Positions 35,425-37,953 of a stretch of DNA of 64,000 bases are shown here, piece after piece. The notes under the pieces were generated by a model, which did not search any database, had not been told where the DNA came from, and saw only the letters and a program-made list of their open reading frames with translations. How positions within the stretch are numbered: the first letter of the stretch is position 1; each line of letters begins with the position of its first letter. Location: positions 20,183 to 84,182 of the forward strand of contig CAZODI010000012.1 in the NCBI GenBank assembly GCA_964578535.1. The letters run 5' to 3'. The DNA is from an uncultured Syntrophaceae bacterium. GTDB lineage: Bacteria; Desulfobacterota; Syntrophia; Syntrophales; PHBD01. The translations under genes were made by a program, and so were the position numbers.

Positions 35425-35454
35425 TTGACAAGATTGTCCCTTTCCGTGTAGTTG
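35425..35454 (+). promoter_or_regulatory. weak sigma-70-like promoter with overlapping palindrome upstream of nrpR
   Basis: TTGACA (35425-35430), with only a poor -10 (TAGTTG) 18 nt downstream. The palindrome GACAA-GA-TTGTC (35427-35438) overlaps the -35. Confidence 0.25.
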
Positions 35455-35480
35455 CGTCGGCAAAGGATGGCCGATTGCCG

Positions 35481-36566
35481 ATGGGTTCCCCTTTCACAAA
35501 TCCCGCCGATGTCGAGCGCAAGACCCTGATGATCCTCCGCATTCTCCACGAGGCAGGTCAGTCCGTGGGATCGCGCCTGATTTCCCGGAAGATGCTGGAC
35601 CGGGGCCTGCCGTCGAGCGAGCGGGCCGTCCGTTACCACCTGAAACTCATGGATGAGCGCGGATTGACGCGGCTGATCGGCAAACGCGACGGGCGGATCA
35701 TCACCGACCGGGGCATCGAGGAGATCGGCCGGGCCAGGGTCCGGGACAAGGTGGGACTGGCCAATTCCCGCATCGAATCCCTGGCGTTCCAGACCACGTT
35801 CAAACCGGAAACCGGCCGGGGACTTCTGCCGGTGAACATCTCGCTCCTGCCGGAGGAGACGTTTCCCGAGGCCGTCCGGATCATGGAGCCGGTATTCGAG
35901 GCGGGTTATACCGTCAGCCGGCGCGTTGCCGTGGCCGGTCCGGGACAGAGGCTGGCGGGACTGCTCGTCCCCGAGGGAAGGGTGGCAATGGCCACGGTAT
36001 GCAGCATCGTGGTCAACGGCGTTCTCCTGAAGCACGGCATCCCCATGGACTCCAAGTTCGGCGGCATCCTGCAGGTGAGGAACCGCCACCCCCTCCGGTT
36101 CGTGGAGCTGATTTACTACTCCGGGTCCTCCCTGGACCCGTCGGAGGTCTTCATCCGGGGAAAGATGACATCCGTCCGGAGCGTCGTGGCCGAGGGAGAG
36201 GGAATGCTCCTGGCCAACTTCCGGGAGATCCCGGCTGCCTGCCTGCCCCTCATGGAACAGCAGCTCGCCGGGCTTGCCCGGGCGGGCATTGACGGGGTCC
36301 TCGTGAAGGGCGAGGTGAGCGAGCCGGTCTGCCAGACGCCCGTGGAGGTGAACCGGGTCGGCATTGTTCTCATTGGAGGCCTGAACCCGGTCGCCTGCGT
36401 GGAGGAAGCGGAACTGGACGTGGACAACCGGGCCATGTCCGCCGTCATGGAGTTCGGAGACATGGAGCCGTTCGACCAGGTATTGAAGCGCTGCCGGACC
36501 AGGACGGGAGCCAGAAAGAAAACAGCACGCCGGCGGGCCGGGGAAGGATCGCCGGGGGAAAAATAA
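35481..36566 (+). CDS. nrpR: NrpR-family (archaeal-type, 2-oxoglutarate-responsive) nitrogen repressor homolog
   Basis: 361 aa from ATG 35481. The winged-helix segment [48 protein letters not shown] matches the NrpR N-terminus as I recall it from methanogens. The remainder resembles an NrpR/DUF128 domain. Confidence 0.75.
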
Positions 36567-36597
36567 AAAAAGACCAACAAGAGAAAGGGGTATTGTC

Positions 36598-37953
36598 ATG
36601 TCCGTTATTTCAGATGTCCTTGCCAAGGTGAAGCAGCTTGACCCCGACCAGCCCGAGTTCCACCAGGCCGTGGAAGAGGTCATGGAGACCCTGGAGCCGA
36701 CGACGAAGCGCCATCCCGAGTTCGTGAAGGCGAACATCTACGAGCGCATCGTCGAGCCCGAACGCACGATGCTGTTTCGCGTTCCCTGGGTGGACGACAA
36801 GGGGAATGTCCGGGTGAACCGGGGCTTCCGGGTCCAGTTCAACAACGCCATCGGTCCCTTCAAGGGCGGCCTCCGCTTCCATCCCTCGGTGAACCTGGGA
36901 ATCATCAAGTTCCTCGGCTTCGAGCAGATCTTCAAGAATTCCCTGACGACCCTGCCCATGGGCGGCGGCAAGGGCGGCTCCGACTTCGACCCCAAGGGCA
37001 AGTCGGACGGCGAGGTCATGCGGTTCTGCCAGGCCTTCATGCGGGAGCTCTTCCGCCATGTCGGCGCGGAGACGGACGTCCCCGCCGGCGACATCGGGGT
37101 CGGCGGCCGGGAAATCGGCTACCTCTTCGGATACTACAAGAAGATCCGCAACGAGCATACCGGCGTGCTGACCGGCAAGGCTCTGGAATACGGCGGCAGC
37201 CTGGTCCGTCCCGAGGCTACCGGGTACGGCACCACCTACTTTGCGGCGGAGATGCTGGCCACCCGCGGCCTGGACTTCAAGGGCAAGATCGTCGCCATCA
37301 GCGGCGCCGGCAACGTAGCCCAGTACGCCGTCGAGAAGGTCAACCAGCTGGGCGGCAAGGTCATCACGCTGTGCGACTCCAGCGCTACCATCGTGGACGA
37401 GGCGGGCATCGACCAGAACAAGTGCGATTTTGTCATGGAGCTGAAAAACGTCAAGCGCGGCCGGATCAAGGAGTACGCAGACAAGTACAAAACCAGCTGC
37501 GTTGAGGGCTCCAGTGTGTGGGACGTGATCCGGGACCAGGGTTTGAAGGTGGACATCGCCCTGCCCTGCGCCACCCAGAACGAGCTGGACGCCTCCCATG
37601 CCGCCGCCCTGGTGAAGAACGGCTGCATCTGCGTGGCCGAGGGGGCCAACATGCCCTCCACGCCGGACGCCGTGAAGATCTTCCAGGAGAACAGCATCCT
37701 CTACGGACCCGGCAAGGCAGCCAATGCCGGCGGCGTGGCCACTTCGGGCCTGGAAATGAGCCAGAACAGCCTGAAACTCTCCTGGACCCGGGAAGAGGTG
37801 GACCAGCGACTCCTCATCATCATGAAGAGCATCCACAAGGCCTGCGTCGAGACCGCCGAGGCCTACGGCCGGAAGGGAGACTACGTGACGGGCGCCAACA
37901 TCGCCGGATTCACCAAGGTGGCCCGGGCCATGCTGGCCTTTGGTGTCGTATAA
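36598..37953 (+). CDS. gdhA: NADP-type glutamate dehydrogenase
   Basis: 451 aa. Hexameric GDH signature [16 protein letters not shown], plus [11 protein letters not shown] and a Rossmann segment [10 protein letters not shown]. Confidence 0.93.

Follow-up and report, generated by a model that had tools for sequence, protein, structure and literature searches.

A bacterial NrpR gene paired with gdhA in Syntrophales, and a candidate operator for its proposed autoregulation

We analysed a 64,000-nucleotide stretch of DNA (hereafter the window) from contig CAZODI010000012.1 of an uncultured Syntrophaceae bacterium, in which the open reading frame (ORF) at 35481–36566 encodes a genuine bacterial NrpR with the NrpRI-type layout, namely a helix-turn-helix (HTH) domain and a single NrpR regulatory domain (NRD). 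The gene is followed by gdhA, and this nrpR-gdhA pairing is a common but unstudied arrangement in Syntrophales, not a one-off hybrid. A conserved CGGCAA palindrome lies between the nrpR promoter and the start codon, and a 12-mer, ACAWTYTTGTNY, recurs at nitrogen promoters of the window. The explanation that would join these features, in which NrpR represses its own operon through the palindrome, 2-oxoglutarate releases it and a neighbouring NifA-like enhancer-binding protein (EBP) acts through the 12-mer, seems to us about as apt to be right as wrong. The elements of the operon are as follows, in window coordinates:

35425–35430 (−35, TTGACA) and 35449–35454 (−10-like, TAGTTG), plus strand: sigma-70-type promoter with an 18-nt spacer, in a conserved register
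35458–35480, no strand assigned: candidate NrpR operator, CGGCAA-AGGA-TGGCCG-A-TTGCCG, with half-sites at 35458–63, 35468–73 and 35475–80
35481–36566, plus strand: nrpR, ATG start, 361 aa
36567–36597, plus strand: nrpR-gdhA spacer of 31 nt, with a Shine-Dalgarno sequence and without a hairpin or promoter-like site
36598–37953, plus strand: gdhA, NADP-specific glutamate dehydrogenase (GDH), NF006929 match
37982–38020, plus strand: intrinsic-terminator-like hairpin (37982–38010) with a T-run, 12 bp, 11 of them G-C pairs

The assignment of the protein to the NrpR family is secure, since profile, PDB sequence and fold matches agree. In Pfam, residues 17–82 match the winged helix PF08461 (HTH_12/RNase-R type; E 4.4e-17, 62 bits against a cutoff of 21.4) and residues 91–329 match the regulatory domain NRD1_2, PF01995 (E 2.1e-78, 263 bits against a cutoff of 25), the latter over positions 1–237 of the 238 in the profile and thus at full length. 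The sole sequence match in the PDB is 3NEK, the 'nitrogen repressor-like protein' MJ0159 of Methanocaldococcus jannaschii (2.3e-23), which is the only solved relative; the NRD aligns with it over about 235 residues at 25–26% identity, and the 3NEK chain (238 residues) covers only the sensor-domain part of the window protein. An AlphaFold2 model built from 21 homologs (pLDDT 78) was matched to the same structure by Foldseek, with a target-normalised TM-score of 0.87–0.88, an rmsd of 2.5 Å and an E-value of 1.5e-18; the next PDB match stands at 3.8e-3 and all others are at noise level. The modelled winged helix consists of three helices and a two-strand wing (H8–25, H31–40, H47–59, E63–66, E71–74). 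C174 aligns with a cysteine of MJ0159, within a T(V/I)C strand in which this residue is conserved in both proteins, and the recognition-helix string (S/G)ERAVRYH is common to the window NrpR, other bacterial subfamilies and the two-NRD NrpR of Methanosphaera. The profile search and the comparison of the model with 3NEK thus bear out an earlier reading made from the letters alone (the sequence-only reading), which had recognised the product as an NrpR homolog. The protein has one NRD stretch only, without the tandem layout of the Methanococcus type (540–580 aa), and no second NRD gene was found in the 64-kb window. Its length of 361 aa, as against the usual 338–340 aa, is due to a basic C-terminal tail (residues about 338–361; 36494–36563), which, apart from this protein, only its three nearest relatives have. 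The G+C content of nrpR (64.9%) equals that of the window (63.6%) and so gives no hint of a recent transfer.

Relatives of this protein are numerous. More than 6,000 were found in the protein database at E < 1e-5, 677 family clusters emerged when 1.84 billion cluster representatives were scanned exhaustively with HMMER, and a scan with one genome per species detected a relative in at least 557 species genomes. Our locus comparisons cover the best 80 of these genomes, which all belong to Syntrophales, including Syntrophus, Smithella and Smithellaceae. Among the best 150 family representatives, an HTH with one NRD, about 320–345 aa in length, is the majority layout, and the two-NRD form of 540–580 aa (e.g. 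in Methanosphaera) is in the minority. Cluster look-ups named only one Planctomycetota cluster and one Methanosphaera cluster, and a query with the MJ0159 sequence returned three proteins only. Relatives in Syntrophales, Syntrophobacterales and Planctomycetota already bear the names NrpR, DUF128, NrpRI or 'repressor of nif and glnA' in NCBI and JGI, and a 2009 paper mentioned NrpR in 'certain Bacteria'. Given this literature mention, the existing annotations and the family-wide layout, neither a bacterial NrpR nor its single sensor domain is new. The sequence-only reading had presented the locus as an undescribed regulatory hybrid and the protein as a single-sensor-domain variant; the first proposal is not supported, as the arrangement is a trait of the whole order Syntrophales and the close relatives of the protein were annotated beforehand, and the second describes the majority layout, which is also that of Methanosarcina NrpRI. 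The features that seem not to have been described before are the conserved pairing of nrpR and gdhA in an operon, the candidate operator of this operon and the cross-wiring with a sigma-54 regulon. We found no functional study characterising a bacterial NrpR in the literature searched, where all characterised NrpR proteins are from methanogens, even though Syntrophales genomes commonly encode the family.

The nearest counterparts in layout are the NrpRI proteins of Methanosarcina mazei and M. acetivorans, which likewise combine an HTH with a single NRD, and JGI names close relatives of the window protein 'global nitrogen regulator NrpRI'. Methanosarcina has a separate, HTH-less NrpRII, whereas no NRD-only gene exists in this 64-kb window, and bacteria have no TBP or TFB for such a protein to contact.

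The product of gdhA reaches 751 bits with the NADP-GDH equivalog model NF006929 (cutoff 536) and carries the Pfam domains ELFV_dehydrog_N and ELFV_dehydrog. The gap that separates it from nrpR is A-rich, contains the Shine-Dalgarno sequence AAAGGGG and has a predicted folding energy of −1.0 kcal/mol. No terminator-like site lies between the two genes; the sole one in the 34.9–38.3 kb region adjoins the 3′ end of gdhA and is the probable end of the nrpR-gdhA transcript. The sequence-only reading was therefore right in placing gdhA 31 nt downstream with no intervening terminator. Among the 80 Syntrophales loci, gdhA follows nrpR immediately on the same strand in 56 and is divergent and upstream of it in four; the contig ends just past nrpR in six, and 14 have another arrangement, with a 529-aa Glu_synthase (PF01645) protein encoded by the next gene in eight of these. 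The linked GDHs fall into three sequence classes (82–98%, 62–66% and 33–35% identity to that of the window), and the linkage survives swaps among them. In all, nrpR is linked to a 2-oxoglutarate-aminating enzyme, either GDH or the Glu_synthase protein, in 68 of the 74 informative loci, and among distant homologs one from Planctomycetota (L084) lies near a GDH gene and another (L085) near a Glu_synthase/NuoF-like cluster. As far as predicted functions go, the shared trait of the neighbour of NrpR is that it aminates 2-oxoglutarate to glutamate. The nrpR-gdhA gaps range from 0 to 267 nt, mostly 70 nt or less, and are A/T-rich with a strong Shine-Dalgarno sequence at their end, and no conserved promoter was detected within them among the Syntrophales loci compared. 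Very probably, then, nrpR and gdhA are co-transcribed as a bicistronic operon; the sequence-only reading had suggested as much, and the same-strand adjacency, the short gaps and the lack of a conserved internal promoter support it.

Two peculiarities were observed in the spacers of other species. In one locus (L018, about 7000–7270), the spacer is lengthened by 266 nt of G+C-rich repeated units (GGGGAGAGGGAAGCTCAATTTCCCCGCCCCTGG) with a predicted folding energy of −125 kcal/mol, an insertion that resembles a REP/MITE-like element within the operon. Smithella-type spacers (e.g. L044, L055, L059, L061 and L062) share a short conserved element, CATG...CATGAAAYAAATAAT, before the Shine-Dalgarno sequence of gdhA; this element, which the 31-nt spacer of the window lacks, may serve as a processing site or form a small hairpin.

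When the 79 nrpR upstream regions were aligned on the −35 box, essentially all of them exhibited TTGAYA followed in register, after 17–18 nt, by TAGnnn. Position 35425, where the sequence-only reading began its finding, is the first base of this conserved TTGACA box. The predicted transcription start is at about 35461, and the candidate operator reaches from there to the ATG. Downstream of the promoter, the alignment gives the consensus CGGCAA-N4-T(T/G)GCCG-N-TTGCCG, in which the first half-site is essentially invariant and the half-site letters in general are nearly so. We scanned 907,802 bases (the 80 loci and the window) for CGGCAA-N4-TTGCCG with at most one mismatch and obtained 77 sites, where about 2 would be expected by chance on a rough estimate. 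Three are located elsewhere; 74 lie directly upstream of nrpR, one per sequence and at a fixed distance 3′ of the TTGACA/TAG promoter. No other promoter in the window carries the palindrome, and neither the window nor the flanks of the 80 loci have it upstream of amtB, the EBP gene or the genes for GSIII and glutamate synthase (GOGAT); the window contains no nif genes.

Similar sites accompany other NrpR lineages. One Deltaproteobacteria metagenome-assembled genome (MAG; L063) has a second NrpR paralog (HTH_12 and NRD, 39% identical, 4370–5600) whose divergent, monocistronic gene is preceded by two perfect ATCGGCAA-N2-TTGCCGAT palindromes, the only occurrences of this N2 form in the 908 kb. 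A 46%-identical homolog (L081) has CGGCAG-TG-TTGCCG behind a TTGACA/TACTAT promoter. In the window palindrome, 10 bp separate the centres of the half-sites, and GGCAA-N4-TTGCC spans 14 bp from its outer GG to its outer CC, as does GGAAN6TTCC, the consensus of the methanogen NrpR operator (PMC2723118). Its specificity for nrpR, its DNA-type conservation, its recurrence and its resemblance to the methanogen operator single out the CGGCAA palindrome as the leading candidate for an operator through which NrpR would regulate its own gene.

The element could alternatively act as RNA, as one or more hairpins beside the start codon that control translation or stability of the nrpR-gdhA message. It does occupy the predicted 5′ leader right up to the AUG, it offers two alternative pairings (half-site 1 with 2, or 1 with 3), and there is no normally spaced Shine-Dalgarno sequence. 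However, none of the six pairs shows compensatory changes among 53 distinct sequences, with 23 mismatching cells uncompensated and a covariation score equal to the shuffle mean, and the half-site letters hardly vary. Since variation in the palindrome is never compensated, DNA recognition is favoured over an RNA stem. Moreover, an Rfam scan matched no RNA family, a tRNA search gave no match, and in several species the palindrome is set back from the AUG by another 10–25 nt and followed by a normal Shine-Dalgarno sequence. We thus consider control through the mRNA leader highly improbable.

It is also conceivable that the adjacency of the two genes is a matter of metabolic bookkeeping, NrpR regulating distant genes such as nif or glnA while gdhA is co-expressed or self-controlled and some other factor binds the palindrome. 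The sequence covered comprised 64 kb of this genome and, for the other species, no more than 6 kb to either side of nrpR, and some Syntrophales nrpR genes stand alone or precede glmU/glmM-like genes, both of which would suit this account. Against it, the palindrome accompanies nrpR even without gdhA and recurs with two paralogous nrpR lineages. A palindrome that travels with nrpR is the usual signature of autoregulation. The link to 2-oxoglutarate-aminating enzymes described above, which extends to the Planctomycetota homolog and to a further distant one, likewise speaks against it, and we regard this alternative as quite unlikely.

Three other interpretations of the region were tried and rejected. 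The methanogen-type GGAA-N6-TTCC was discarded as the operator here, being absent from the nitrogen promoters; its sole intergenic match (22324–22337) lies between the genes for a DeoC-family aldolase and a zinc alcohol dehydrogenase and was judged to be due to chance. GACAA-N2-TTGTC (35427–38) is not a unique operator, as it is one copy of the shared 12-mer. CGGCAA...TTGCCG cannot be read as a sigma-54 promoter, because it has GG-N9-GC in place of the obligatory GG-N10-GC and a sigma-70 promoter lies upstream.

The second motif, the 12-mer ACAWTYTTGTNY, connects nrpR with the other nitrogen genes of the window, as follows:

35414–35425 (plus strand, CCAATTTTGTGT) and 35426–35437 (minus strand, ACAATCTTGTCA): 12-mer pair at nrpR, abutting one another and overlapping the −35 box
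40773–84 (minus strand) and 40815–26 (plus strand): 12-mers at the EBP gene
40800–40815: sigma-54-like TGGCACACTTTTTGTT upstream of the EBP gene, a weaker element with an imperfect −12
42457–68 and 42488–99: 12-mers at GOGAT-GSIII, starting 119 and 88 nt upstream of the sigma-54 element
42576–42591, plus strand: GOGAT-GSIII sigma-54 promoter, TGGCACATTTTTCGCT
63640–51 and 63667–78: 12-mers at amtB, 80–118 nt upstream of the −24 element
63560–63545, minus strand: amtB-glnK sigma-54 promoter, TGGCACGTCCCTTGCC

The window contains 11 matches to the 12-mer against 2.0 expected, a number reached in none of 100 shuffles, and eight of them are found in four nitrogen promoters, two each at nrpR, the activator gene, GOGAT-GSIII and amtB. 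In the nrpR upstream regions, 65 matches occur in 39 of the 79 sequences (2.3 in shuffles), with one cluster beside the −35 box and another about 30 nt upstream of it. At the GOGAT and amtB sigma-54 promoters, the two members of a pair are 27–31 nt apart and start 79–121 nt upstream of the −24 element (GOGAT in the window, amtB in four species), i.e. roughly 105–145 nt from where transcription is expected to start; L011, L014 and L029 have the same tandem arrangement ahead of amtB. NtrC sites at E. coli glnAp2 lie at similar distances. Since the paired sites thus have the usual geometry of EBP enhancers, we assign the 12-mer to the activator, and it is most likely, from its placement, the binding site of the neighbouring NifA-like EBP. 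This protein has the GAF, sigma-54 AAA+ and HTH_8 layout, and is called NifA-like rather than NifA because its score of 474 bits against TIGR01817 is below the cutoff of 528.85. The NifA-type upstream activating sequence TGT-N10-ACA was rejected as an inconsistent reading, as it occurs only once (42464–79) and not at the other promoters. The sigma-54-type promoters at 42576–42591 and 63560–63545 give substance to the sigma-54/EBP nitrogen regulon in which the sequence-only reading had set the gene.

A different division of the two motifs would have NrpR itself bind the 12-mer, and not the palindrome, as a global repressor of amtB-glnK, GOGAT-GSIII, the EBP gene and nrpR-gdhA, which the sequence-only reading had implied. 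We consider this unlikely, together with its corollary that NrpR would serve as an anti-activator at the sigma-54 promoters, masking or occupying the enhancer sites. In its favour, the 12-mer marks exactly the gene set of methanogen NrpR (glnA-type genes and amtB/glnK) plus nrpR and is partly palindromic (ACAA-N2-TTGT), and the palindrome, with its one instance per locus, cannot by itself explain a regulon. However, pairs about 30 nt apart at the distances given above are typical of EBP enhancers, and no other conserved enhancer candidate was seen at those sigma-54 promoters. The ACA/TGT arms of the 12-mer are only about 6–7 bp apart from centre to centre, unlike those of GGAAN6TTCC, and it does not resemble the methanogen half-site despite the conserved recognition helix. 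Finally, it is the CGGCAA half-site, not the 12-mer, that recurs upstream of two other NrpR subfamily genes. The regions at 35.42, 42.45 and 63.64 kb, which the sequence-only reading had proposed for electrophoretic mobility shift assays with NrpR, do contain a real shared motif in the 12-mer, but the palindrome at 35458–35480 is the better candidate for an NrpR operator.

In the explanation that assigns the palindrome to NrpR and the 12-mer to the EBP, nrpR-gdhA would be read from the sigma-70 promoter (35425–30/35449–54) to the hairpin at 37982–38010. NrpR would bind the palindrome over the predicted start and the short leader and block RNA polymerase, with the same positional logic as methanogen NrpR at GGAA-N6-TTCC. 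Methanogen NrpR is freed from DNA by 2-oxoglutarate (PMC11957540, PMC4902934), and by analogy this metabolite would release the window protein, so that synthesis of GDH, a consumer of 2-oxoglutarate, may rise with its substrate, while negative autoregulation would set the basal level of nrpR-gdhA. Under nitrogen starvation, the NifA-like activator would switch on amtB-glnK and GOGAT-GSIII and at the same time occlude the −35 box of nrpR-gdhA; as the 12-mer overlaps this box, the activator would shut GDH off in that condition.

The scheme may be compared with the NrpR of Methanococcus maripaludis, the 2-oxoglutarate-released repressor of nif, glnA and glnK-amtB. The two proteins share PF08461, PF01995, the NRD fold and the ERAVRYH string, both systems have a palindrome with outer GG...CC 14 bp apart beside the transcription start (predicted in the window), and the genes controlled, or in the window predicted to be, turn 2-oxoglutarate and ammonium into amino acids. 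In contrast to the methanogen, the window protein has one NRD and not two, the host is a bacterium with a sigma-70 promoter in place of TATA/BRE, and the half-site is CGGCAA and not GGAA, with a third half-site in addition. The predicted target is the protein's own operon with gdhA, and the glutamine synthetase (GS) and amtB genes of the window carry sigma-54 promoters without the palindrome.

Several observations weigh against this explanation. Beyond the family and fold of the protein, the conserved gene order and the two motifs with their positions, all of which were observed, we infer the pairing of proteins with motifs, the effector, where transcription starts and in which direction regulation acts, as well as DNA binding by a bacterial NrpR. 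With one palindrome per locus and none at other promoters in 908 kb, a wider NrpR regulon is unproven. The spacing of the half-sites differs by subfamily (N4 with a third half-site as against N2), which is odd for a single dimer geometry, and no clear CGGCAA palindrome was found upstream of the distant homologs L084, L085 and L086. Exact GGAA-N6-TTCC has five matches in the window against 2.05 expected, with none at a nitrogen promoter. In the clade of the window, the start codon abuts the operator without a good Shine-Dalgarno sequence at normal spacing. The logic of the circuit has a weak point as well, as NrpR would repress at low 2-oxoglutarate (nitrogen excess) and the EBP at starvation; such opposed repressors would plausibly require an intermediate window for GDH or merely partial autorepression by NrpR.

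Repression of gdhA by a nitrogen activator has experimental precedent. In Geobacter sulfurreducens, the master nitrogen EBP, GnfM, acts at upstream sites to switch on nitrogen genes, and it represses gdhA by way of sites that overlap the gdhA promoter (PMC2995071); the control of gdhA by GnfL/GnfM, as by enterobacterial Nac/NtrC, is of the kind that we propose for the 12-mer at the −35 box. The Geobacter gdhA, however, has a sigma-54 promoter and, by the account of PMC2995071, no NrpR, whereas the nrpR-gdhA operon of the window has a sigma-70-type promoter and NrpR; the Geobacter activator is a response regulator and that of the window a GAF-domain NifA-like protein. The additional NrpR layer is specific to the Syntrophales-type locus.

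It is tempting to suggest that NrpR has been re-purposed in Syntrophales, and perhaps in other anaerobic bacteria, from a global repressor of nif, glnA and amtB to a local homeostat of 2-oxoglutarate that controls its own operon, shared with a 2-oxoglutarate-aminating enzyme, through a CGGCAA-type operator, while the EBP has taken over the classical regulon and cross-represses nrpR-gdhA. Taken as a whole, this suggestion is tentative, and we lean slightly to the side of doubt. The resulting circuit, with two regulators that possibly both sense 2-oxoglutarate, would be one that we did not find described in the literature searched. Syntrophales are obligate partners of methanogens, and exchange of genes between these syntrophs and the methanogens may lie behind a re-purposed circuit of this kind.

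The locus offers one 23-bp operator candidate, one predicted target (gdhA) and a competing 12-mer common to three sigma-54 promoters. If the explanation holds, an archaeal-type 2-oxoglutarate sensor would work with a bacterial RNA polymerase, and two regulators would divide low-affinity (GDH) and high-affinity (GS-GOGAT, AmtB) ammonium assimilation between them. It would also yield a compact 2-oxoglutarate-responsive repressor/operator pair usable in anaerobic bacteria. If it fails, nrpR remains an ordinary, already annotated member of its family.

The wider surroundings were annotated with real reading frames chosen by codon-position G+C, the G+C content of 63.6% giving rise to long spurious ORFs throughout the window. 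The genes flanking the operon and those of the sigma-54 regulon are:

29397–32597: carB paralog, upstream of nrpR
ending at 34003: purF-like amidotransferase gene, upstream of nrpR
34074–35297, minus strand: M29 aminopeptidase gene, divergent from nrpR
38095–40731, minus strand: gene for a PPDK_N-domain protein of 878 aa, downstream of gdhA
40872–42431, plus strand: NifA-like EBP gene, GTG start; GAF, sigma-54 AAA+ and HTH_8
42649–43764, about 43770–45377 and 45402–47735, plus strand: split GOGAT, three ORFs
47767–49944, plus strand: GSIII gene
51303–52832, plus strand: guaA, masked in the ORF list by a longer ORF
61898–62242, minus strand: glnK (P-II)
62258–63490, minus strand: amtB

Domain searches confirmed the neighbourhood described in the sequence-only reading (a NifA-like activator, GOGAT, GSIII and amtB-glnK). 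After GSIII, the gene order is carA, guaA, a second carB, a second purF-like gene, PAS-GGDEF, acyltransferase and glnK-amtB. The nrpR-gdhA-PPDK-like-EBP block recurs, at 98–99% protein identity, on a partial contig (CAZXMK010000026.1) from an uncultured Syntrophaceae MAG. In the 878-aa protein, the PPDK_N domain (phosphoenolpyruvate-utilising, ATP-binding) is confined to the C-terminal two-thirds, and the N-terminal third is unassigned. Its gene is kept between gdhA and the activator gene in many Syntrophales loci (70–99% identity), and from this conserved position it may share the regulatory unit of nrpR-gdhA and the activator.

The glutamate synthase (42649–47735) has the archaeal-style split, with three ORFs. 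Of these, the first (371 aa, starting MCRLF) has no Pfam or NCBIfam match, the second encodes a Fer4 and Glu_synthase FMN domain protein, and the third a fusion of a GXGXG domain with a GltD-like pyridine-nucleotide oxidoreductase that has Fer4. The two carB paralogs (54% identical), in 29397–34003 and 52832–57533, are each followed by a gene for a purF-like class-II amidotransferase, these two being 36% identical. The first pair adjoins nrpR on its upstream side, and the order carB/purF-like/nrpR/gdhA is also found in the Syntrophus-type loci L011, L013, L014 and L020. Of these, L013 comes from a MAG assigned to Syntrophus aciditrophicus, whose nrpR locus is laid out as in the window. The second belongs to a same-strand run of glutamine-consuming amidotransferase genes after GSIII (carA, guaA, carB and purF-like; 50155–57533), which sits downstream of the sigma-54 promoter at 42576.

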